Part shown: piece after piece, positions 7,273 through 59,370 of the stretch | Layout: each line of letters starts with the position of its first letter | Position numbering within the stretch: the first letter of the stretch is position 1 | Assembly (NCBI GenBank): GCA_031269685.1 | Contig: JAISYU010000030.1 | Span: forward strand, 729-64,728 | From: Dysgonamonadaceae bacterium | GTDB taxonomy: Bacteria > Bacteroidota > Bacteroidia > Bacteroidales > Azobacteroidaceae | Direction of reading: 5' to 3' | Length of the DNA: 64,000 nucleotides | Notes under the pieces: generated by a model | Database searches by the model: none | The model's input: the letters and a program-made list of their open reading frames with translations, nothing else | What the model was told of the DNA's origin: nothing | Position numbers and translations under genes: made by a program

Positions 7273-8758
7273 TTATTTTCTTGATTGTTCCAATCCATAT
7301 CCTTTACGTCTATCCTCAATCTTCAAGAGGTATGCGACGAAAATCGCTAATATCCCGAAAAGAGCGAAGATAAGCATTGGTAATGTGTAGTCGTACGTTG
7401 CGGCGCCTTTATCGTCCGCTCCGGTTACGCACCACCTGTTTAACACCCAACCGATAAGGTAAGGCACTCCCGCAAGCCCTATGTTTTGTACCCAAAAGAT
7501 GAGTGCGTATGCTGTGCCGAGCTGTTTTTCGGGGATTATCTTCGGTACGGAGGGCCACATAGCCGATGGGACAAGCGAAAACGCTATTCCTAACAGTATG
7601 ACAACGATTATCGCAAACCATACATAATTCAAGAAAGGCGCGGCAAACAGCAAATGTACAACGACAAGCAGTAATGACCCGATAAGCATTAATGTCGCCC
7701 CGTGCCCCCTCTTATCATATATCCAACCGAAAAATGGAGTCATCAGCATGTTACCGAATGGCAGCAGGCTGGGTACTATTCCCGCGAATTCCTTTTCCAC
7801 TCCGTATTTGTTGACCATTAAAGATGCTGCAAACTTCAAGAACGGAAACACTGCCGAGTAAAAAAGAACACACAGTATCGCTATCAGCCAAAAGCCTTTG
7901 TTTGCAAATACTACGCCTACATCGCGCATCTTAAATTCATCTTCTTTGGTTTTTACCGAAACCGTTGCGTCTTCGCGGTCAAGTTTTCTGTCCATCACAC
8001 AGTAAACAAGGAATACCAGCAGACCGATTGTCAACATGGCAAGCGAAAAGAGAAAAGGCGATGACATTGAGAAATTACGGGCAATGATCGGACTGAATGC
8101 CATTGCAAAGGCTGTTCCGAGTCTTGCTATTGCTACCTGGATACCCATTGCAAGGGCTAGTTCACCGGTCTTTCCAAACCATTTAACAATGATCTTGGAA
8201 ACAGTGATTCCCGTTATTTCCGAACCCATGGCAAAGACCGCAAAACCACAGCAGGCAACCAGAATCTGTGTGCGTATCCCGAAAATACTCCCTGCGTCGG
8301 GCGATATATACTCAATCGCATAGTACTTTATCGCACATCCTATTACCATCAGCGCTGCCGACATCGTACCGGTAAACCGGACCCCCATCTTATCAAGTAT
8401 GATACCTCCGAAAAACAACATTAGCAGTATCACGTTCAGCCAGCCGTAAGCGCTGTTGAAGAGACCGAATTCATCGCTCGACCACGAGAGTCGTTGCGTG
8501 TCTGCATACTTTGTCGTTGTATGCCTGCATACATTGTCGTTGCGTGCCTGCATACATTGTCGTTGTATGCCCGCATACATTGTCGTTGCATGCCTGCATA
8601 CATTGCAAAGGTTTCTCCCCGAGCATGTCCATCAAAGGCGACATTGCGTCGTTGAGGAAGTATCCCCACATCATGGTGAAGGATACTATTAATAACGCTA
8701 TCCAGCGCATCTTCCCGTTATTTCTTACATTTCCCTTTACAATACCTTGTATTTTCAT
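7273..8758 (-). pseudogene. MFS transporter interrupted and frameshifted by a 115-bp tandem array (456 aa if the array is removed)
   Basis: The N-terminus (MKIQG...RWIALLIVSFTMMWGYFLNDAMSPLMDMLGEKPL, from 8758) and the body (LSWSSDEFGLFNSAYG...GGIILDKMGVRF, to 7273) are in different frames. Deleting 8491-8605 joins them in frame (1486-115=1371 nt). Confidence 0.85.
8491..8605. repeat. 5 x 23-bp tandem array, consensus TCGTTGTATGCCTGCATACATTG
   Basis: TCGTTG recurs at 8491, 8514, 8537, 8560 and 8583; the consensus unit contains the dyad TGTATGC-N2-GCATACA. Confidence 0.97.
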
Positions 8759-18462: not shown

Positions 18463-18996
18463 TTAACTAATATTTGCGTAAATTCCGCTACAAATTATAT
18501 CTTTGCCTCTGCAAGTTGCGTAAATTCCGCTACAAATTATATCTTTGCCTCTACAAGTTACGTAAATTCCGCTACAAATTATATCTTTGCCTCTACAATT
18601 TGCGTAAATTCCGCTACAAATTATATCTTTGCCTCTACAAGTTGCGTAGATACCTCTGCACTTTGCAGAGATGCCGCTGCACTTTGCAGAGATGCCGCTG
18701 CATTTTGCAGAGATGCCGCTGCGTTTTGCAGAGATGCCGCTGTACTTTGCAGAGATGCCGCTGTACTTTGCAGAGATGCCGCTGCATTTTGCAGAGATGC
18801 CGCTGCATTTTGCAGAGATGCCGCTGCATTTTGCAGAGATGCCGCTGCGTTTTGCAGTGGAATGGATACAACTTGTGTGGACTCCGCTGCATTTTGCAGT
18901 GATGCCGCTGCGTTTTACGGTGATGCATCTATAAAATGCTGTGATACAACTGAAATCTGTATCTGTATCCTTATAATATGTGGAGTTTACTCTCAT
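18463..18996 (-). CDS. Putative Gly/Cys heptad-repeat peptide (upstream ORF spanning the array), 177 aa
   Basis: ATG 8 nt after a consensus -7 element; (SGISAKC)n followed by (RGKDIICSGIYATC)n; stop 36 nt before the 18426 gene. Expression unproven. Confidence 0.45.
   Translation of the reverse strand: MRVNSTYYKDTDTDFSCITAFYRCITVKRSGITAKCSGVHTSCIHSTAKRSGISAKCSGISAKCSGISAKCSGISAKYSGISAKYSGISAKRSGISAKCSGISAKCSGISAKCRGIYATCRGKDIICSGIYANCRGKDIICSGIYVTCRGKDIICSGIYATCRGKDIICSGIYANIS
18467..18928. repeat. Compound array in one 21-bp phase: 4 x 42-bp units (18474-18641), then 9 near-identical (18656-18844) and 4 degenerate (18845-18928) 21-bp units
   Basis: 42-mer TTGCGTAAATTCCGCTACAAATTATATCTTTGCCTCT(G/A)CAAG; 21-mer CTGCA(C/T)TTTGCAGAGATGCCG with dyad CTGCA-N3-TGCAG; the first half of the 42-mer matches the 21-mer at about 14/21. 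Confidence 0.95.
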
Positions 18997-27721: not shown

Positions 27722-29152
27722 ATGAAGCAAATAATTGTGACGATTTCTTTGGCGGTCATGTTTTGCATGAATATTTCCGCGCAGCACAAACGTGAAATTA
27801 GGGCAGTGTGGTTAACGGTCAACCACAACCTCGACTGGCCCGATACTCCGGCGGTCAGTAAGCAGGGGATAGAAAAACAGAAAACCGCTCTCGACAATAT
27901 GCTTGACAGGCTTAAGGAGGCAAATATTAACATGGTATTTTTTCAAGTGCGTATCCGTGGCAGCGTTACCTACAGTTCGGCAATAGAGCCGTTTTCCGAA
28001 TTAATCAAATCCAGGCGGTGTACTGAGGATTTTGATGCTTTGGGGTACGCAATCGAAGGATGTCACCGTCGTGGAATGGAATTACATGCCTGGTTTGTTG
28101 TCTATCCTTTGGGAAAAAATCCCGGTAATAATTCATTGCGCAGTATATCCGTGAAGTTCAAAAACGAGTGGTATATTAATCCCGGAAATCCTGGTACTAC
28201 GCCATACTTGGTAAATCTTGTCCGCGAATTGGTTGAGAAATATGACATTGACGGCATACATTTCGATTATATCCGTTATCCTGACGGCTCTGCTAAATTT
28301 CCTGACGACAGGGAATTCAAGCTTTATGGAAACGGTAAAACTAAGGATCAGTGGAGGCGAGGGAATATAAACCGCTTTGTTTATGAAGCCTATGACGCTG
28401 TGAAGGCTTTAAAGCCGTGGGTTATTGTCAGCAGCGCCGTGGTGGGAATGTATAACACCTTGGCGGAAGTTAACCGGAAACACTGGACTGCTTATAACTC
28501 TGTTTTTCAAGACCCTGTAGACTGGATAACAAAGGGGAAGCATGATTTTATTGTTCCCATGCTTTACAGTAAGGATAATCTGTTTTTTCCATTTATAGAT
28601 GACTGGGTAGAGCGTTGCGGCAGGGAAAGGGTTGTCCCCGGGCTTGGTATATATATGATCAGCGACGCATCCTGGTCTCCGGACATTATTACCGGGCAGG
28701 TACGGTATTTGCGGGACAATAAGCTGCCTGGTTGCGCTTTTTTCCGTGTAAGGAATCTAACCGACGATGCCGGTTTTTATAAACTTGTTACTTCCGGTTA
28801 TTTTCCGGATCCGGCGCTTTTGCCCGCTGTTGAGGTATCTCGGCAGGCGCCATGTACTCCTGGCAGTTTCAGGGTATGGGGCAGTGGTGGTTCCATGAAT
28901 CTTTCATGGGACAGGTTTTCGGATGCCGATGATATTTTTTACAATGTTTACTGTTCGGAATCGTTTCCCGTAGATACGGATAATCCCAAAAACCTGATAG
29001 TTGCCAGGCTCGACGATACCGAATGCAAACTGAACGTGAGTCATTGCAACCACGGTCTCTATTATTGCACCGTCACCGCTTACGACAGGTACCATAACGA
29101 GAGCATGATTTCAGAGACCGCCTTGTTTGTTGTCGGTGAATATGAGAAATAA
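27722..29152 (+). CDS. Second GHL10/DUF187 family hydrolase with FN3-like tail
   Basis: EIRAVWLT, FFQVR, ELHAWF, DGIHFDYIRYP and VTAYDRYHNES motifs; signal peptide. Confidence 0.85.
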   Translation: MKQIIVTISLAVMFCMNISAQHKREIRAVWLTVNHNLDWPDTPAVSKQGIEKQKTALDNMLDRLKEANINMVFFQVRIRGSVTYSSAIEPFSELIKSRRCTEDFDALGYAIEGCHRRGMELHAWFVVYPLGKNPGNNSLRSISVKFKNEWYINPGNPGTTPYLVNLVRELVEKYDIDGIHFDYIRYPDGSAKFPDDREFKLYGNGKTKDQWRRGNINRFVYEAYDAVKALKPWVIVSSAVVGMYNTLAEVNRKHWTAYNSVFQDPVDWITKGKHDFIVPMLYSKDNLFFPFIDDWVERCGRERVVPGLGIYMISDASWSPDIITGQVRYLRDNKLPGCAFFRVRNLTDDAGFYKLVTSGYFPDPALLPAVEVSRQAPCTPGSFRVWGSGGSMNLSWDRFSDADDIFYNVYCSESFPVDTDNPKNLIVARLDDTECKLNVSHCNHGLYYCTVTAYDRYHNESMISETALFVVGEYEK

Positions 29153-29153
29153 T

Positions 29154-30029
29154 TTACCTCAAGGACGCTTCCAGGAACCGGTCTTTGCCGGAAATATCCT
29201 TCTGTAAACAGATTCTGCGATAGCCTGCCTGTTTCGCCATTGCTTTTATTTCCCCCGCATACACCGGATTAATCTCGAAAAACAGTTGCCCTCCTCCGGC
29301 AAGGTGTCGCGTGCCGAGTTCTGCTATGCGATTATAGAAAACCAGTGGATTATTTTGTGGTACAAACAGCGCTTCTGCGGGCTCGTAATCAATGACGTTA
29401 CTGTTCATGCCTGCGACTTCTGACGGTGGAATGTATGGCGGGTTGCTGACAATTATATCGAATCGCGCAGGTAAACCTTCCGGCAAATCTTCCATTATAT
29501 CATGATCTGCAAAGTCAATACAGACCTTGTTCAACGCAGCATTTTCGCGTGCAACTTCAAGCGCTTTACCGGAAATATCAACCGCATAAACCTTAGACCT
29601 GAGACGTTTGGCAATCGTTATTGCAATACACCCTGAACCGGTACCGACATCAAGACATGTCAATATTTTGTCTCCATATTCATTACTTTGTTCTCGGATG
29701 CGATCTCCTGTACGCCTGATTATCAGTTCGACAAGTTCTTCTGTTTCCGGTCGCGGGATAAGCACGTTCTGATTGACCTTGAAAGACATTCCGAAAAATT
29801 CGGTTTCGCCGATTATGTACTGTATGGGTTTATATCGGCGAAGATCGGTTATTATATTCCTTACGGTAATCTCTTCGCTGCGTGACAACCGCCTTTCCTT
29901 TCCGCTTAGAATCTCCTGCCGCCCGGTATTGAAACATTTTTCCATAACCAGGAAAAAGAATGTCCTGATCTCCTGTTCTGGATAATAATCCGATAACTGT
30001 TTCCTGAATGAATTGTAGATCTCTTTCAT
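29154..30029 (-). CDS. prmC: Release factor glutamine methyltransferase
   Basis: PIQYIIG, LIPRPETEEL, DVGTGSGCI, SNPPY and DISGKDRF motifs. Confidence 0.95.
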   Translation of the reverse strand: MKEIYNSFRKQLSDYYPEQEIRTFFFLVMEKCFNTGRQEILSGKERRLSRSEEITVRNIITDLRRYKPIQYIIGETEFFGMSFKVNQNVLIPRPETEELVELIIRRTGDRIREQSNEYGDKILTCLDVGTGSGCIAITIAKRLRSKVYAVDISGKALEVARENAALNKVCIDFADHDIMEDLPEGLPARFDIIVSNPPYIPPSEVAGMNSNVIDYEPAEALFVPQNNPLVFYNRIAELGTRHLAGGGQLFFEINPVYAGEIKAMAKQAGYRRICLQKDISGKDRFLEASLR

Positions 30030-30146
30030 GCCTGCAAAATTACTCTTTTTATTTACTTCCTTACATCAGATTTATATGATACAAATAAAACTGTTACCTT
30101 TGCCTGCAATATCAGTTGTGGAAAATCCACATACTAAATAAATCTT

Positions 30147-30287
30147 ATGAAAACATTATTTTTTTACTTACTGGAAAACGGTCTGTTATTCCTGTTATTA
30201 ATCTTTTCTTTTATAAAAGAGCGACAGTCATACTTCAATTATGAAGATTATAAAATCAAAAAATCCGCCGGATTTTGGATGATATAA
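30147..30287 (+). CDS. Putative 46-aa small membrane peptide
   Basis: Manual translation MKTLFFYLLENGLLFLLLIFSFIKERQSYFNYEDYKIKKSAGFWMI; downstream of TACCTTTG (30095-30102) with A-rich leader; below the ORF-track cutoff. Confidence 0.35.
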   Translation: MKTLFFYLLENGLLFLLLIFSFIKERQSYFNYEDYKIKKSAGFWMI

Positions 30288-30291
30288 TTAT

Positions 30292-30550
30292 GAACCAAGT
30301 CCGAACCAACTCCGTTGCAAGTCCGTTGCAAGTCCGAACCAACTCCGTTGCAAGTCCGAACCAACTCCGTTGCAAGTCCGAACCAACTCCGTTGCAACTC
30401 CGAACCAACTCCGTTGCAACTCCGAACCAACTCCGTTGCAACTCCGAACCAAGTCCGTTACAACTCCGAACAAAATCCGTTGCAACTCCGAACCAACTCC
30501 GAACCAACTCCGTTGCAACTCCGAACAAAATCCGAACAAAATCCGAACAA
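30292..30550. repeat. 11-bp two-monomer array (A=GAACCAACTCC, B=GTTGCAACTCC), 23 full units plus a partial unit
   Basis: Order read directly: AABBABABABABABABABAABAA, then GAACAA running into the ATG at 30551. Confidence 0.95.
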
Positions 30551-32596
30551 ATGAAGATAATAACAGTAATAATCTTGTCACTAAACTTACTGCAAATTCA
30601 CGCACAGGAAAATCCCAAAAATACCGAATGGATGGATTTCCTCGAAGAACTCTATATGACGGAAGACGCAGACCCTGCAAGTATCGAACAACTGTATGAC
30701 GATCTGTCATACATCAGTGAACGCCCCTTTAACTTGAGAACCGTTACCCGGAAGGAACTCGAAAGATTACCATTCCTTTCTTCCATACAAATCGAAAACC
30801 TGCTTTACTATGTTTACAGGTTTGATCTGGTCGATATCTACGAATTAAAGAACGTGAAAAGCCTGGACTTTGTGACAATTAACCTTCTTTTGCCGTTTGT
30901 ATACGTCGGCGAGGCAAAAAAGACACCGCTCAACTTGAAAAATACGTTGCCTCACGTAAAACATGACGTCATTCTGCGCACCGGATACACTCTGCAACAA
31001 AAAGCCGGATACAAAAAATCTACCGAAGAAGATAAAGCCGCCAGACCAAACAAATACTACCTTGGCAACCCTTATTATATGTCTCTTCGATATGGTTTTA
31101 GGACGAATGATGATATTCAGTTTGGTTTTGCAGGAGAGAAAGATGCCGGCGAATCTTTCTGGAATAAGCACCACAAAGGGTTTGACCACTACACCTTCAA
31201 CCTCAACCTGAAAAACCGCGGGATCCTCGAAGACCTTCATATTGGCGATTACCGTCTGTCTTTTGGGCAGGGGCTTGCTATGAACACAAATTTTATAATG
31301 GGGAAAACTACCTTTATTACTAATATCGCTCAAATGAATGAAGGAATAAAACGACATGCCACAACCGACGAAAATAATTACTTCAGTGGTGCAGCTGCAA
31401 GCCTGAAAATTAATAATTTACAGTTTACCTGCTTCGGATCACACAGATTGCACGACGCCAATGCCGACAGTTTAACTGTTTTCTCCTTCAAAAACGACGG
31501 CTATAACCGCACACTGAACGATATGGAGAAACGCAATTCCGCTACGGTCAATACGGGTGGCGGGCATATACGCTGGAGAACGGAATCGGTGAATATCGGC
31601 TTAACTGCGGTCTATTATTCATTTGCAGGGAAGCAGTTAAATCCCAAGCGTCAACCGTACAATATCTTTTATCTACGGGCTAAAGACTTTTTCAATACGG
31701 GAATTAATTACGGTATGCATGGAAAATGGTTTGCGTTCCAGGGAGAGACTGCTATTGACAGGAACAGTAAATTTGCGACAGTAAATAACTTGTTGCTTAA
31801 TCCGTCTTCGCTGTTTGACCTGGCTATCTCTTATAGATCCTATGCCCGTGACTATAATGCCTTTTACGCACGCGCATTTTCAGAATCTTCGACGGTAAGT
31901 AATGAGAGTGGGTTTTACTTTGGTTGGAAGATTTACCTGTCTACTTGTTGGGAATTGTCGGGCTACATTGATTGTTTCAAATTTCCATGGTTTAAGTATG
32001 GTATTGATTCGCCTTCGGAAGGTAGTGAGAGTGTACAGAAGATGACTTTCAAGCCAAACGATAAATGGGAATTGCAGGCAAGGCACAAGTATAAGAGTAA
32101 AAGCAAAAACAAAAACAAAGATTACAATGAAGGCAGTGAGACGTTTGTCAAGCCGTATTATCAGGATCAATGGCAGTTCAGGATTACCACTGACCTGAAT
32201 AACTGTCTACAGTTGAAAACTCGGGTGGATTACAGCCGATATACGTTTCTTGAAATATTAGAGAAGGGCTGGTTTATTAGTGAAACGCTTTCCTGGTCAC
32301 CGAAATATAAATTCCACATTGACGCCTGTGCGGGATATTACGACACCGGGGGATATAATACCCGCATAAGTGTTTATGAGAAAAGCCTTCTCAATGCTTT
32401 TTCGTTCCCAAGTTTTTACGGAGAAGGATTTCGCATGTACATGGTTGTCAGGTGGAATGTTTCGATGCGGGCAAGTGTTTGTATGAAGATCGGTAATACC
32501 CGTTATTTTGACCGTACGACGATTAGTTCCGATCTTGAGGCGATTGAGGGCAGGGATAAAACGGATATAAGTTGTTTATTAAAGTGCAATTTTTAG
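30551..32596 (+). CDS. Secreted helix-hairpin-helix (ComEA-like) domain protein of Bacteroidetes, probable C-terminal beta-barrel
   Basis: Signal peptide MKIITVIILSLNLLQIHAQE; PFNLRTVTRKELERLPFLS HhH; GEKDAGE and GDYRLSFGQGL motifs; C-terminal aromatic residue. Confidence 0.8.
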   Translation: MKIITVIILSLNLLQIHAQENPKNTEWMDFLEELYMTEDADPASIEQLYDDLSYISERPFNLRTVTRKELERLPFLSSIQIENLLYYVYRFDLVDIYELKNVKSLDFVTINLLLPFVYVGEAKKTPLNLKNTLPHVKHDVILRTGYTLQQKAGYKKSTEEDKAARPNKYYLGNPYYMSLRYGFRTNDDIQFGFAGEKDAGESFWNKHHKGFDHYTFNLNLKNRGILEDLHIGDYRLSFGQGLAMNTNFIMGKTTFITNIAQMNEGIKRHATTDENNYFSGAAASLKINNLQFTCFGSHRLHDANADSLTVFSFKNDGYNRTLNDMEKRNSATVNTGGGHIRWRTESVNIGLTAVYYSFAGKQLNPKRQPYNIFYLRAKDFFNTGINYGMHGKWFAFQGETAIDRNSKFATVNNLLLNPSSLFDLAISYRSYARDYNAFYARAFSESSTVSNESGFYFGWKIYLSTCWELSGYIDCFKFPWFKYGIDSPSEGSESVQKMTFKPNDKWELQARHKYKSKSKNKNKDYNEGSETFVKPYYQDQWQFRITTDLNNCLQLKTRVDYSRYTFLEILEKGWFISETLSWSPKYKFHIDACAGYYDTGGYNTRISVYEKSLLNAFSFPSFYGEGFRMYMVVRWNVSMRASVCMKIGNTRYFDRTTISSDLEAIEGRDKTDISCLLKCNF

Positions 32597-34491: not shown

Positions 34492-35077
34492 GGCTTCAAA
34501 TTCTCTGAATTGGGGATCAAATTCTCTGAATTGGGGACCAAATTCTCCAAATTGGGGACCAGATTCTCCAAATTGGGGATCAAATTCTCTGAATTGGGGA
34601 TCAAATTCTCCGAATTGGGGATCAAATTCTCCAAATTGGGGATCAAATTCTCCAAGAATGGCGTCAATTTCTCCGAGAATGGCGTCAATTTCTCCAAGAA
34701 TGGCGTCAATTTCTCCAAGAATGGCGTCAATTTCTCCAAGAATGGCGTCAATTTTTCCAAGAATGGCGTCAATTTCTCCGAGAATGGCGTCAATTTCTCC
34801 AAGAATGGCGTCAATTTCTCCAAGAATGGCGTCAATTTCTCCGAAACTGTCGACAAATTCTCTGAAACTGTCGACAAATTCTCTGAAACTGTCGACAAAT
34901 TCCACGAAACTGTCGACAAATTCTTCCAGACGGGAGACAAATTCTCCGAAACGGGAGACAAATTCTCCGAAACGGGAGACAAATTCTTCCAGACGGGAGA
35001 CAAATTCTTCCAGACGGGAGACAAATTCTCCGAAACGGGAGACAAATTCTCCGAAACGGGAGACGATTTTTCCAACT
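34490..35077. repeat. 28 x 21-bp array in four consecutive sequence blocks (8+9+4+7 units)
   Basis: Blocks TGGGGATCAAATTCTCCAAAT, ATGGCGTCAATTTCTCCAAGA, CTGTCGACAAATTCTCTGAAA and CGGGAGACAAATTCTCCGAAA share a CAA(A/T)TTCTC core; units counted from the translated frame. Confidence 0.95.
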
Positions 35078-47983: not shown

Positions 47984-48370
47984 ATGAATACAAAAGTAAT
48001 ATATAGCATAGGGAAGAGGACGCAGGATACGGAAAAATATCCGACAGAATATTACATTTCCACATACCTGAAAAGAAATATGGAAGGGACTCCTTGCGTG
48101 ACTAAAGGGACTCCTTGCGTGACTAAAGGGACTCCTTGCGTGACCGAAGGAACTCCTTGCGTGACTAAAGGAACTCCTTGCGTGACCGAAGGAACTCCTT
48201 GCGTGACGGAAGGAACTCCTTGCGTGACGGAAGGAACTCCTTGCGCGACGGAAGGAACTCCTTGCGTGACTAAAGGGACTCCTTGCGTGACCGAAGGAAC
48301 TCCTTGCGTGACTAAAGGGACTCCTTGCGCGACGGAAGGAACTCCTTTACACCGGAAAATCTGTTGGTAA
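47984..48370 (+). CDS. Putative Gly/Cys heptad-repeat peptide (upstream ORF), 128 aa
   Basis: ATG 8 nt after the -7 element; 12 x (E/K)GTPC(V/A)T; stops 92 nt before the 48463 gene. Expression unproven. Confidence 0.45.
   Translation: MNTKVIYSIGKRTQDTEKYPTEYYISTYLKRNMEGTPCVTKGTPCVTKGTPCVTEGTPCVTKGTPCVTEGTPCVTEGTPCVTEGTPCATEGTPCVTKGTPCVTEGTPCVTKGTPCATEGTPLHRKICW
48083..48347. repeat. 12.6 x 21-bp array, consensus (G/A)AAGG(A/G)ACTCCTTGCG(T/C)GAC(T/C/G)
   Basis: Read directly; the consensus unit contains the dyad AAGGA-N2-TCCTT. Confidence 0.97.
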
Positions 48371-52323: not shown

Positions 52324-52992
52324 ATGTATTGGCTATTAAATTCATCTATCGGCAGGAAGGTAATTATGAGTGTCTCTGGTATCTTCCTCATTTTGTTTTT
52401 GCTGTTCCACATGTCGATGAACCTCACACTGCTCTTTTCGGCAGAGGCTTATGATATGATATGTGGACTGCTGGGAGCAAACTGGTATGCTATTGCCGGA
52501 ACACTTGTCCTTGTGGCTGGTGTCGCGGTGCATATCCTGTATGCCTCCCTCCTTACTCTGCAAAACCGCAGAGCACGTGGAAGTAAGGGTTACCTCGCTT
52601 CCTCGAAAACAGACACGGAATGGTCGGCTAAAAACATGTATGTGCTTGGAATTATCATAGTGCTCGGCTTGCTGTTGCACCTGTGGAACTTCTGGTACAA
52701 GATGCAGTTTGCCGAACTGACCGGTATTCACACCGGCGAACATCTGCCTCATGAAGGCGCCGCCTATGTATCGGAACTGTTTGCCTGCCCATGTTACTGT
52801 GTTATCTACCTCGTGTGGCTCGGCGCAATCTGGCTGCATCTTACGCACGGTGTATGGAGTGCATTCCAGAGTGTCGGCTTGAGTAACAAAACATGGTATC
52901 CTCGCTGGAAAACGATCTCGTATGTCGTTTCAACCATTATCGTACTCGGCTTCGCTGCCGTACCAATCAAATTCTTATTGTTTAATGTTTAA
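52324..52992 (+). CDS. sdhC: Succinate dehydrogenase/fumarate reductase cytochrome b subunit
   Basis: [25 protein letters not shown] and LHLTHG heme-ligand His residues; promoter TACCTTTG at 52275-52282. Confidence 0.92.
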
Positions 52993-53003
52993 AAGAATTA
53001 TCT

Positions 53004-54968
53004 ATGGCAACTGTAAACTTAGATGCAAAAACCCCACAGGGCGCGCTCGCCGAGAAGTGGGCAAATTATAAGGCACACCAGAAACTTGTCAATCCTGCCA
53101 ATAAGCGCCGCCTTGACATTATAGTAGTCGGTACGGGACTTGCCGGCGCTTCGGCAGCCGCATCGCTCGGCGAACTCGGTTTCAACGTGCTTAACTTCTG
53201 TATTCAGGATTCTCCACGCCGCGCACATTCGATCGCTGCTCAGGGAGGAATCAATGCAGCTAAAAACTATCAGAACGACGGTGACTCGGTTTACCGTCTT
53301 TTCTATGACACAATCAAGGGAGGCGACTATCGGGCTCGTGAAGCAAACGTCTATCGCCTTGCCGAAGTATCGGTCAATATCATTGACCAGTGTGTAGCCC
53401 AGGGTGTTCCTTTTGCTCGCGAGTACGGAGGACTGCTTGACAATCGTTCTTTCGGCGGCGCACAGGTCTCGCGAACGTTCTACGCTAAAGGTCAGACAGG
53501 TCAGCAGTTACTGCTCGGTGCATATTCAGCCCTGAGCCGTCAGATACACAAAGGCTCGGTAAAGATGTTTACCCGTCACGAAATGCTTGACATTGTCCTT
53601 GTCAAGGACGAAAACGGTACTGAACGCGCACGCGGTATCATTGCCCGCAACCTCGTTACAGGATCTATCGAACGCTTTGCCGCTCACGCCGTTGTTATAG
53701 CAACCGGAGGCTACGGCAATGCCTATTTCCTCTCGACCAACGCAATGAATTCCAATGGCTCGGCAGCAATTCAGGTCTATAAGAAAGGCGCATTGTTCGC
53801 CAATCCTGCCTACGCGCAGATTCACCCTACCTGTATTCCCGTTCACGGTGAGTTCCAGTCAAAGCTGACTTTGATGTCCGAATCGTTACGTAACGACGGG
53901 CGCATCTGGGTGCCAAAGAAGAAGGAAGATGCCGAAGCGATCCGCGCAGGCAAACTCAAGCCGACCGACATAAAAGAAGAAGACAGGGACTATTACCTTG
54001 AGCGCCGTTACCCTGCTTTCGGCAATCTCGTTCCCCGCGACGTAGCTTCACGGGCAGCGAAGGAACGCTGTGATGCAGGCTTTGGGGTAGCGTCTTCGGG
54101 ACTTGCAGTCTATCTCGACTTTTCGGAAGCCATCAGGCGGCTTGGGGAAAAGACCGTAGAGGCGCGTTACGGTAACCTGTTCCAGATGTACGAAAAGATC
54201 ACCGACCAGAATCCCTACAAGACACCGATGATGATCTATCCTGCTATACATTACACGATGGGCGGCGTTTGGGTAGATTACGAATTGATGACGACCATTC
54301 CCGGCTGCTTCGCTATCGGGGAAGCAAACTTCTCCGACCACGGCGCCAACCGGCTTGGTGCATCGGCGCTTATGCAAGGCTTGGCGGACGGTTATTTTGT
54401 CTTGCCTTATACTATCCAGAATTACCTGTCGGATCAGATTCGCGTGCCGCGTTTCTCTACCGACCTGCCGGAATTTGCAGAAGCGGAAAAGACCATTAAG
54501 GACAAGATAGCCACCTTGATGAGCATACGGGGAAAGCGCTCGGTGGACAGTATCCACAAAGAACTTGGTCATATAATGTGGGAATACGTCGGAATGGGAC
54601 GCACCAAAAAGTCACTTGAGACGGCTCTCGAACGGCTTAAGGAAATAAGGAAGGAACTGTGGAGCAACGTACGCATTCCGGGTGAAGCGAACACGCTGAA
54701 TATAGAGCTTGAAAAAGCCCTCCGTGTAGCAGACTTCATCGAAATAGGACGCCTTATGGCGCTTGACGGTCTTAACCGCAACGAGTCCTGTGGCGGGCAC
54801 TTCCGCGAAGAGTACCAGACCCCCGAAGGTGAAGCCCTGCGCGACGACAGCAGCTATTCATACGCTTCCTGCTGGCAGTATGAAGGGGAAAACACGGATC
54901 CTACTCTTATCAAGGAAGCGTTAGACTATGAGTTTATCGTCCGTCAGCAACGTAATTATAAATCTTAA
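53004..54968 (+). CDS. sdhA: Succinate dehydrogenase/fumarate reductase flavoprotein
   Basis: [38 protein letters not shown] and ESCGGHFR motifs. Confidence 0.97.
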
Positions 54969-54973
54969 GGAAA

Positions 54974-55729
54974 ATGGAAAAGACTATCAATATCACATTA
55001 AAAGTATGGCGTCAGAAAGGACCCAAAGAACAAGGACGCTTCGAGACCTATAAGCTTAACGGCATTTCCGGCGACACATCCTTTCTTGAGATGCTTGACA
55101 TATTGAACGAGCAGCTGGTCAATGAGGGCAAGGAACCTGTTGCCTTTGACAATGACTGCCGCGAAGGCATCTGCGGCATGTGTTCGCTCTACATCAACGG
55201 TCACCCGCACGGACCCGACAACCTGATAACGACCTGCCAGTTGCACATGCGTCACTTCAACGATGGCGACACGATCTCCGTAGAGCCGTGGCGGTCGGCG
55301 GCATTCCCAGTTATCCGCGACCTGATGGTGGACCGTTACGCCTTCGACAAGATCATACAGGCAGGTGGATATGTATCCGTCAACACGGGAGGTGTGCCGG
55401 ACGCCAATGCCATCCCTATCGCCAAGCCCATAGCCGACGAAGCGATGGATGCGGCATCGTGCATCGGTTGCGGCGCCTGCGTAGCAGCCTGCAAGAACGG
55501 TTCGGCGATGCTGTTTGTATCCGCGAAAGTCAGCCAGTTGGCGCTGTTGCCGCAGGGCAAGGTAGAAGCAAAGGAACGTGCGCGGGCTATGATAGCCAGG
55601 ATGGACGAACTTGGGTTTGGCAACTGTACCAATACCCGCGCCTGTGAGCAGGAGTGTCCGAAAGGGGTATCTATCAGCAATATTGCGCGGCTGAACCGTG
55701 AGTTCCTGAAGGCGAAGTTTGCGGAATAA
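54974..55729 (+). CDS. sdhB: Succinate dehydrogenase/fumarate reductase Fe-S subunit
   Basis: [21 protein letters not shown] and [12 protein letters not shown] motifs. Confidence 0.97.
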
Positions 55730-55761: not shown

Positions 55762-55781
55762 AGGGGGGCGTAAGCCCCCTT
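55762..55781 (+). terminator. Terminator hairpin after sdhB
   Basis: GGGGGC-GTAA-GCCCCC stem-loop followed by T-rich TTGTTAGTTT. Confidence 0.7.
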
Positions 55782-55840
55782 GTTAGTTTAATAACTTTGA
55801 GTCTGGTCTATACCCATAAAGTTTTGGGTTAGTGCATCAA

Positions 55841-55973
55841 CACTGTAAGCCGGCACACAACGACAATGTATGCTGGCTTACAACGACAATGTATGCTGGC
55901 ATGCAACGACAATGTATGCTGGCTTACAACGACAATGTATGCTGGCATGCAACGACACTGCAAGCCGGCACAC
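55841..55973. repeat. About 5.8 x 23-bp array, same family as 8491-8605 in the opposite orientation
   Basis: Units CAATGTATGCTGGC(TTA/ATG)CAACGA alternate; terminal units are CACTG(T/C)AAGCCGGCACAC. Confidence 0.95.
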
Positions 55974-55975
55974 TG

Positions 55976-56012
55976 TAAAAAAACAGAGGGGGACGCATCG
56001 CTGCATCCCCCT
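55976..56012 (-). terminator. Intrinsic terminator of the cyd operon
   Basis: Minus strand GGGGGATGCA-GCGA-TGCGTCCCCC (GNRA loop) followed by CTGTTTTTTT. Confidence 0.8.
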
Positions 56013-56049: not shown

Positions 56050-57150
56050 TTATTTCCTGTCCATCTTACGCCATACATACCATATATAGGCAAGTACAAA
56101 GGGGATAAACAGGGATACGATTGACATTGCAGTGAGCGTGAAATGGCTCGAACTGCTGTTGAAGATTGTCAGTGAAGAGGACGGCGTTGACAGTGAACGG
56201 TAATAGACCGTGCCGTCCACACCGGCGATAAACAGGAGACTCAGTACGGTCAGAACCGTGCCGATGCCTGCATACCATATCCCATTGAGACTCTTTGTCA
56301 GAGCCCCCTTGTAGATGCCGTACAGTACGCCAAGTACGCCGACAAGGAGCGTGGCAAGCGTCCATGGCGCTGCAAGCAAGTTGTCGAAGTATGTCCCTGC
56401 TGCTGTGTTTATTATTCCGTTATCGAACTTCCATACCGGATGAAGGAAGAGCAGGTTGACAAGGTATGTGAGGAAGGCTACAAGGAAAAAGACGGCATTG
56501 CTTAATACCTGCCGGCGGGCGCTTCTGCGGATGTTGTCCGACTGAAGGTTGTTGATGATGTAAAGTGCTCCAAGCGTGCGGGAAAGGAAGAAGATTGCCG
56601 CGCCGAGTATGACATTGAACGGCGTAAGCCATATTGCCTCTATCCCGAAGAAAGCGCCTTCCCAATGGGAGAACGTGGGATTGACCGTATCGGTCAGGTT
56701 GATGGGATCGTACTGGAACTGCGCGCCGAAGAAGAGAGTCGATACGGCTGTCCCAAGCAGTATCGGTCCAAGTAGCCCGTTGAGGAAGAGGAACGTTTTG
56801 TATGTTCCTTTTCCAAGGAAGTTTCCCTGCTTGGATATAAATTCGTAGGATACAGCCTGTATCACGAAACTGAACAGAATAAGCATCCATACCCAGTACG
56901 CGCCGCTGAAACTGATAGTATAGAACAGCGGGAAGGATGCGAAAAAGGCTGCGCCAAAAGTGACAAGCGTGGTGAAGGTTAATTCCCACTTACGCCCCAA
57001 TGAGCCGATTAACTGCCGCAGGTCGTCCTCTTTCCTGCCGAGCGTGTATATAAGTGACTGTCCTCCCTGTACAAACAGCAGGAATACAAGTAATCCGCCG
57101 AGAAGGGATAGGAGAAACCACCAGTAATGTTGAAGTATTGAGTAATCCAT
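56050..57150 (-). CDS. cydB: Cytochrome bd ubiquinol oxidase subunit II
   Basis: LQHYWW, GRKWELTFTTLVTFG.AFFASFP and NSSSSHFTL motifs. Confidence 0.93.
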   Translation of the reverse strand: MDYSILQHYWWFLLSLLGGLLVFLLFVQGGQSLIYTLGRKEDDLRQLIGSLGRKWELTFTTLVTFGAAFFASFPLFYTISFSGAYWVWMLILFSFVIQAVSYEFISKQGNFLGKGTYKTFLFLNGLLGPILLGTAVSTLFFGAQFQYDPINLTDTVNPTFSHWEGAFFGIEAIWLTPFNVILGAAIFFLSRTLGALYIINNLQSDNIRRSARRQVLSNAVFFLVAFLTYLVNLLFLHPVWKFDNGIINTAAGTYFDNLLAAPWTLATLLVGVLGVLYGIYKGALTKSLNGIWYAGIGTVLTVLSLLFIAGVDGTVYYRSLSTPSSSLTIFNSSSSHFTLTAMSIVSLFIPFVLAYIWYVWRKMDRK

Positions 57151-59004: not shown

Positions 59005-59092
59005 AACTATTATATAACTTTACTTATCTTTTGTATATTCATTAAATGATGCAAGAAATTTTCTTATACGTATAGGGGAATTTCCCACACGC

Positions 59093-59260
59093 GGGAACAA
59101 ACTGTACACGCGCAGGAACAAATCGTACACGCGCAGGAACAAACTGTACACGCGCGGGAACAAACTGTACACACGCGGGAGCAAACTGTACACGCGCAGG
59201 AACAAACCATACACGCGCGGGAATAAACTGTACACGCACGGGAACAAACTGTACACGCGC
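59093..59260. repeat. 8 x 21-bp array, consensus (G/A)GGAACAAACTGTACACGCGC, with degenerate flanks
   Basis: Units start at 59093, 59114, 59135, 59156, 59177, 59198, 59219 and 59240. Confidence 0.95.
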
Positions 59261-59370
59261 AGAAGCAAACTTCCCATAGGTGCGGGAGAAATTCTTATTG
59301 ATATGTGAAACGTTTATATACACAATGAATTATTTTTATTACCTTTGCAACTCATTTTATATATCATAAT

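Follow-up and report, generated by a model that had tools for sequence, protein, structure and literature searches.

The tract studied here lies between two convergent transcription units in a 64,000-nucleotide window (the whole stretch of DNA that was analyzed) of a termite-gut Bacteroidales MAG (2.23 Mb, 125 contigs, 43.9% G+C, 93% complete). On one side sdhB/frdB closes a three-gene cluster (52324-55729), and on the other are the genes for subunits II and I of cytochrome bd oxidase. Terminator-like hairpins bound the intervening pocket on both sides, as the preliminary description had it, and the pocket holds 5.8 head-to-tail units of 23 bp (Table 1), the last of which is separated from the T-tract of the strong cydB terminator by 2 nt. 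An array in such a position, between convergent terminators, should be neither transcribed nor harmful. A CRISPR array was ruled out because the units abut without spacers. The only Rfam matches to the array were two to microRNA models, both below the gathering scores (29.5 versus 105 bits and 20.6 versus 50 bits), and these were set aside as artefacts of hairpin repeats and not taken to indicate a structured RNA family.

Table 1. Features of the sdhB-cydB pocket and of the second, inverted repeat copy (window coordinates)
Feature	Position	Strand	Remarks
sdhB/frdB, Fe-S subunit, succinate dehydrogenase/fumarate reductase	54974..55729	+	Upstream neighbor; Pfam Fer2_3 and 4Fe-4S dicluster domains
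Intrinsic-terminator-like hairpin of sdhB	55762..55781	+	GGGGGGCGTAAGCCCCC, then T-rich tail
Family-A 23-bp minisatellite array	55840..55973	+	5 full units and a 19-nt sixth; non-coding; TRF period 23/46, sequence inspection
First unit, ACACTGTAAGCCGGCACACAACG, GCCGGC core	55840..55862	+	Pairs with next unit as hairpin with 16-nt arms
Four internal units, GCTTACAACG / GCATGCAACG in alternation	55863..55954	+	46-bp higher-order period (TRF, unit listing)
Sixth unit, cut to 19 nt, ACACTGCAAGCCGGCACAC	55955..55973	+	Variant identical to that of first unit
Intrinsic terminator of cydB	55976..56012	-	Stem 55987-56012, 11 pairs; T-tract 55976-55986 = CTGTTTTTTT; also found as inverted repeat
cydB, cytochrome bd oxidase subunit II	56050..57150	-	Downstream convergent neighbor; Pfam Cyt_bd_oxida_II, 9e-62
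MFS gene, 3' piece (SWSSDEFGLF... to stop codon)	7273..8488	-	Otherwise intact
Second window copy of family A, inverted	8489..8606	-	118-nt insertion (5 units + 3 nt) in MFS gene; shifts reading frame
MFS gene, 5' piece (MRWIALLIV...GEKPF)	8607..8710	-	Aligns with start of G012 orthologue

Over positions 55840-55957, TRF reported 5.1 copies of a 23-bp period (88%) and 2.6 copies of a 46-bp period (93%); the higher score of the longer period reflects the A-B-A-B alternation of the four internal units that had been described from the start, and which can also be read as ACAATGTATGCTGGCTTACAACG / ACAATGTATGCTGGCATGCAACG. Two near-identical 18-bp words, CACTG(T/C)AAGCCGGCACAC, had been taken for the ends of the array. 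Their spacing of 115 bp is exact (starts at 55841 and 55956), but it arises because the words belong to units 1 and 6 of a 23-bp array (5 x 23), and the same unit variant is present in other arrays, so the words are not termini. Units 1 and 2 contain an inverted repeat with 88% complementarity (55844-55859 and 55867-55882), and the tract as single-stranded DNA folds better than its shuffles (z = -3.9). The 23-mer occurs eight times in the window at up to three mismatches, compared with 0.00 expected from 100 shuffles. The relationship between the two window copies was likewise reproduced: the reverse complement of 8583-8605 (CAATGTATGCAGGCATGCAACGA) matches 55887-55909 (CAATGTATGCTGGCATGCAACGA) at 22 of 23 positions, the single difference falling at the center of the dyad. 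Rearrangement seeded by this inverted pair, which had been suggested, is a small risk; the longest exact run the copies have in common is 22 nt.

The second window copy interrupts a gene for an MFS transporter. The two pieces of the gene are in different frames, and with the repeat removed, they form one ORF of ~440 aa with a full MFS_1 domain. Orthologues are uninterrupted in at least 17 relatives, the closest being that of G012 (Dysgonamonadaceae bacterium Cc175_bin86), with 89% aa identity over residues 1-439. DNA alignment with the orthologues of G012 and G015 opened one clean gap of 118 columns, which corrects the length of 115 first given for the insert; TRF found 5.0 copies of a 23-bp period at 8490-8605. 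The junctions lie between ...GAGAAACCTTT (CCTTT) and CTCGTGGTCG... (CTCGTGG) and have no more than 1 nt in common, so the target duplication is at most 1 nt, and the same alignments revealed no terminal inverted repeats, leader, or tail on the insert. Judged by these alignments, a bare five-unit block (118 nt) was inserted at least once into a conserved MFS transporter gene, and the suggestion that the repeat can land inside genes is upheld by the empty sites in two sister species. Relative to G012, pN was 0.06 and pS was 0.77 (with synonymous sites saturated), a pattern indicating that the gene is otherwise under strong purifying selection; as it has no other defect, the insertion is young relative to the split from G012. 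No close donor array for the insert was found in the assembly (best match, 2.4 mismatches per unit), and its unit variants are exclusive to it within that assembly, a point against misassembly. This is the one clear-cut insertion event documented. For the sdhB-cydB copy no empty site is available, because the gene order is not conserved in relatives: cydB was not found beside sdhB in the sdhB orthologue loci from 80 genomes, nor in the closest relatives G012, G015, and G017.

The insert also supplies an in-frame ATG (window 8514-8580; ORF 7273-8580). This ORF could, by prediction, be expressed as an MFS protein that lacks the first transmembrane helix and carries a 30-residue repeat-encoded leader in its place at the front.

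A mismatch-tolerant scan of the MAG extended the repeat well beyond the two copies first noticed, to 16-17 arrays on 15 contigs, each with 3 to 13 in-register units. These arrays, which we refer to as family A, span 115-300 bp with unique sequence on both sides and contain 118 in-register units, with 84 units at up to three mismatches (chance expectation, 0). As the MAG is 93% complete and in 125 contigs, insertion sequences and further arrays may be missing from this census. Family A is dispersed, non-coding, and private to the lineage, and its arrays vary in unit number and have 46-bp higher-order structure; together with the bare insertion in the MFS gene, this sustains the original characterization as a dispersed, probably mobile, non-autonomous tandem repeat. 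All loci are intergenic except the MFS copy, and several lie 3-50 nt from an intrinsic terminator. Units are head-to-tail in every array, and the predominant unit variant differs from array to array. The arrays occur in either orientation, which across the family does not consistently follow GC skew or gene-strand bias; a strand-specific single-strand mechanism therefore gains no support.

The family-A consensus is ACAATGTATGCTGGCATACAACG, with the pattern ACAATGTATGC-N-GGC-W-T-R-CAA-Y-G, in which positions 1-11, 14, 15, 19-21, and 23 are nearly invariant and positions 12, 16, 18, and 22 vary. The repeat is therefore built from a conserved 16-nt block, which spans the boundary from one unit to the next (CAAYG-ACAATGTATGC), and a 7-nt block that varies. 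The two make up a 7-2-7 dyad (TGTATGCnnGCATACA), and hairpins with 12- to 16-nt arms can arise between adjacent units. Conservation of the dyad is confined to its left arm: positions 16 and 18 in the right arm are free to vary, and their pairs are kept in 41% and 67% of units, respectively, with no compensating changes. Units with a GCCGGC core, which occupy both ends of the sdhB-cydB array, were considered as array termini and rejected as such, since they show a mere edge tendency (9 of 32 edge units versus 15 of 98 inner units; p = 0.12, not significant).

Flanks are unique at about half of the family-A loci, namely both window copies and seven other arrays. The remaining loci are composites, a subset of which have modules of 38-153 bp in common. 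Loci C18 and C121 have the same 153-bp leader (96.7% identity) in front of arrays that differ in unit number and variants, which implies that arrays turn over faster than flanks mutate; a ~45-bp tail is common to C22 and C121, and a 38-bp linker and degenerate 23-bp units lie upstream of some arrays. At five or six loci family A is adjoined by a second 23-bp repeat, family B (tCCGACGCttGCGTCGG plus linker), which shares its architecture but not its half-sites (CCGACGCttGCGTCGG and a linker of 7 nt) and is likewise confined to the source genome. A 21-bp "brick" resembling GAAGAACTAAGAGTGAAG was also seen between gene ends or promoters and composite A/B arrays (C18:9860-10020 and C121:3701-3860; also C22, C44, C90, C99, and C53). 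In C18 and C121 it encodes the last codons and stop (GVKN*) of two unrelated genes, and in C16, C91, and C100 the same word makes tandem arrays of its own.

Beyond the source genome, family A was absent from all 40 relatives tested. The closest relatives by sdhB are termite-gut MAGs labelled Dysgonamonadaceae, Candidatus Azobacteroides, and Candidatus Symbiothrix. A two-unit pattern had no match in GTDB species genomes or JGI metagenomes, and a looser one-unit pattern gave only single chance-level matches, with no tandem copy, in JGI metagenomes and viral contigs (IMG/VR). BLAST against phage and plasmid collections returned nothing, as did exact-protein look-ups of sdhB and asd for other strains, and a literature search retrieved no description of such repeats in termite-gut Bacteroidales. 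Across these collections, family A appears private to its source lineage.

Family A is found in a genome rich in tandem repeats. TRF reported 272 arrays in the whole MAG (minimum period 15, minimum length 60 bp), amounting to 62.7 kb or 2.8% of the genome; the sdhB loci of relatives (612 kb) gave 11 such arrays. Arrays with 69- and 108-bp periods are coding repeats, and those with 21-, 23-, 41-, and 42-bp periods are almost all non-coding; by sequence they form ~50 or more families, several of which occupy multiple loci, with many units built around a short palindrome. The 64-kb window itself contains five more arrays, whose periods are 21, 22, or 42 bp and whose units are unrelated in sequence (18474-18926, 30292-30551, 34497-35064, 48083-48347, and 59086-59271), and several contigs of the MAG end in tandem arrays. 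In G012, sdhB is directly followed by a duplicated segment of 126 bp and by eight tandem copies of a 21-bp unit, AACGCATTTACGTAAATATGA, with a palindromic core; sister species thus carry arrays of the same style and of unrelated sequence. Cumulative GC skew has its minimum at about 28000-32000 of the window, where long ORFs switch from mostly minus to mostly plus strand, as is expected at a replication origin; no dnaA lies near this minimum, the 22-bp array at 30292-30551 does, and the two family-A copies flank it on opposite sides and in opposite orientation.

All other arrays were screened for genes restored by removal of the array, and the methionine synthase gene metH alone looked real; ten other candidates proved to be non-coding or separate genes. 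In metH (C36:14087-14200, minus strand), the linker that joins the homocysteine domain to the pterin domain is filled by 3.3 units of a related 23-bp repeat, ACACGGAAAGCCTGCATACAGAG. The gene halves on either side differ in frame, which the loss of one unit would correct. Short tandem repeats of other, unrelated sequence occupy this linker and the loop after it in six relatives, always in frame.

How such arrays reached their sites can be examined against described repeat families. BrickBuilt, a 23-nt minisatellite of Porphyromonas gingivalis and P. gulae with the unit AGACCATAGTATCCTCTCATATG (given in the supplement), was proposed to be a MITE because of its ends and was reported to be always intergenic, with no insertion into a gene for which empty sites are documented (Klein et al. 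2015, PMC4596501). Family A shares with it the 23-nt units in spacer-less tandem arrays, a similar number of dispersed loci (~17 versus ~19 for BrickBuilt), units that are half conserved and half variable, predicted stem-loops, a frequent position beside terminators, a species-restricted distribution within the order Bacteroidales, and flanking modules on some copies only. Family A might on this basis be a classical MITE of the BrickBuilt type, with leader, tail, and terminal inverted repeats, moved in trans by an IS5-family transposase, of which the bare arrays are decayed remnants. The period and the dispersed intergenic arrays agree with BrickBuilt (PMC4596501), many copies of which also lack leader, tail, or both, and common modules are present on some family-A copies (the leader, tail, and linker described above, and family-B units); in addition, the junction between MFS coding sequence and insert (window 8604-8615, GAAACCTTTGCA) matches the BrickBuilt/IS5 terminal repeat GAGACCTTTGCA at 11 of 12 positions. 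We nevertheless consider this origin unlikely. The two units, AGACCATAGTATCCTCTCATATG and ACAATGTATGCTGGCATACAACG, are without sequence similarity, the window copies and about half of all family-A copies have neither leader nor tail, and family A lacks IS5-like terminal inverted repeats. The sole dated insertion is sharply bounded and made of units only, lacks inverted ends, and duplicates no more than 1 nt of its target. BrickBuilt is reported to be always intergenic, whereas this insertion disrupts a conserved gene and the metH linker contains a related array. DDE_Tnp_1 transposases (IS4/IS5 type) are absent from the MAG in a search that does match control genomes. Motifs of the GAGACCTTTGCA type are at chance level genome-wide (14 versus ~10 expected) and none bounds any array, which makes the junction match probably a coincidence.

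REP/BIME systems of Enterobacteria and Pseudomonas, which combine REPs in alternating orientation, linker motifs between them, and the gene for a Y1 transposase (RAYT), offer a different model, in which a RAYT/IS200-type enzyme would recognize single-stranded unit hairpins and cut and paste blocks between any two of them with no target duplication. Like REPs, family-A units are short imperfect palindromes with many intergenic copies, often 3' of genes and near terminators; adjacent units form 12- to 16-bp hairpins, and the MFS insertion lacks a target duplication. The units are, however, strictly head-to-tail, unlike alternating BIMEs, and their orientation bears no consistent relation to GC skew or gene strand. 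No Y1_Tnp domain (PF01797; IS200/IS605/RAYT type) was found in the MAG, although the same search matched 6 of 14 control genomes, so a linked transposase of the kind that the preliminary description had proposed to look for was not found there. The chance that family A is such a system is slim, and the early label "REP/BIME- or MITE-like" holds by analogy only, since the repeat has neither inverted ends nor a target duplication and no RAYT or IS5-type transposase was detected in the MAG. Both absences (Y1_Tnp and DDE_Tnp_1 were the profiles searched) are suggestive, not final, in a MAG that is 93% complete, as multicopy insertion sequences are often lost from bins. A cellular role is conceivable as well: the arrays might be functional cis elements, either phased sites (operator, centromere, or nucleoid-organizing) to which a dimeric protein would bind or back-up bidirectional terminators or insulators. 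In geometry the 7-2-7 dyad is like parS and the repeat core of sopC, family B repeats the 23-bp architecture with other half-sites, and most of the 272 arrays in the genome have 21-, 23-, or 42-bp periods. Against this, the left dyad arm alone is conserved, the right arm varies without compensation, the copies are absent from all relatives, so that no conserved function is implied, and one copy destroys a gene; copy number and positions resemble those of tolerated insertions, and no partner protein is known. We rate this role as quite improbable. Repeat-induced chimeric joins could be suspected in a short-read MAG of 125 contigs, several of which have other tandem arrays at their ends. Such an assembly or binning artefact is very unlikely indeed here: both window copies are deep in the interior of a 65-kb contig, the MFS insert is flanked by the two exact halves of a single gene in correct order and on the correct strand, the unit variants of the insert are unique in the assembly, and the arrays have unique sequence on either side.

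Two further repeat families invite comparison. The mycobacterial interspersed repetitive units (MIRUs) reportedly consist of 40- to 100-bp units inside operons, in the orientation of the genes, with small ORFs overlapping neighboring stop and start codons. Family A is like them in its tandem units spread over some tens of intergenic loci in one genome, its variable unit number, and an unexplained route of spreading, yet its units are 23 bp, non-coding, in either orientation, and mostly behind terminators. BOX elements of Streptococcus pneumoniae have the structure boxA-(boxB)n-boxC, with distinct boxA and boxC ends always and a repeated unit of 45 bp. They too are dispersed, non-autonomous, modular intergenic repeats with variable tandem internal units and stem-loop potential, but the window copies of family A have no end modules. 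Family A thus behaves like BrickBuilt, MIRU, BOX, and REP/BIME, yet lacks the defining features of each.

In our judgment the tract at 55840-55973 is likely to be an array of a lineage-private, non-coding, selfish or neutral minisatellite that lengthens through slippage and, on occasion, spreads as a copied bare array. It most likely has no cellular function and is DNA of a kind able occasionally to inactivate genes. Arrays would lengthen and shorten in steps of 23 and 46 bp through slipped-strand or unequal exchange, which fits the A-B-A-B pattern and the array-specific unit variants. New loci may be seeded rarely, when a multi-unit fragment is copied into a break or stalled fork; the agent could be a candidate trans-acting enzyme that reads unit hairpins, or the route could be independent of transposases, for example by template switching or by capture of a popped-out repeat circle. 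Selection would then retain copies chiefly in harmless 3' intergenic pockets, typically just past terminators. A bolder proposal, which we put forward tentatively and regard as somewhat improbable, is that bare hairpin minisatellites are copied to new sites by a route not previously described for bacteria, and that family A is one product of a wider Bacteroidales process behind the ~270 arrays (periods near 21, 23, and 42 bp), in which whole repeat families are replaced from one sister species to the next. Such a route might involve an enzyme for which any pair of 7-2-7 dyad units can serve as ends, or a transposase-free insertion of blocks of about five units by rolling circle or template switching.

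BrickBuilt, MIRU, and other dispersed minisatellite families are long known, and their route to new sites is still unexplained. What is new here is a documented genic insertion, dated and with empty sites in two sister species, in a Bacteroidales lineage distant from that of BrickBuilt. That a units-only array lies inside a conserved gene, with empty sites in sisters, shows that movement or copying of the repeat block itself can take place with neither inverted ends nor a target duplication. In practical terms, lineage-private repeats help to confirm that the contigs of a MAG belong together, and they account for breaks in short-read assemblies. The MFS case shows that such repeats can inactivate genes in gut symbionts, and a dated, units-only insertion makes the copying mechanism directly testable.
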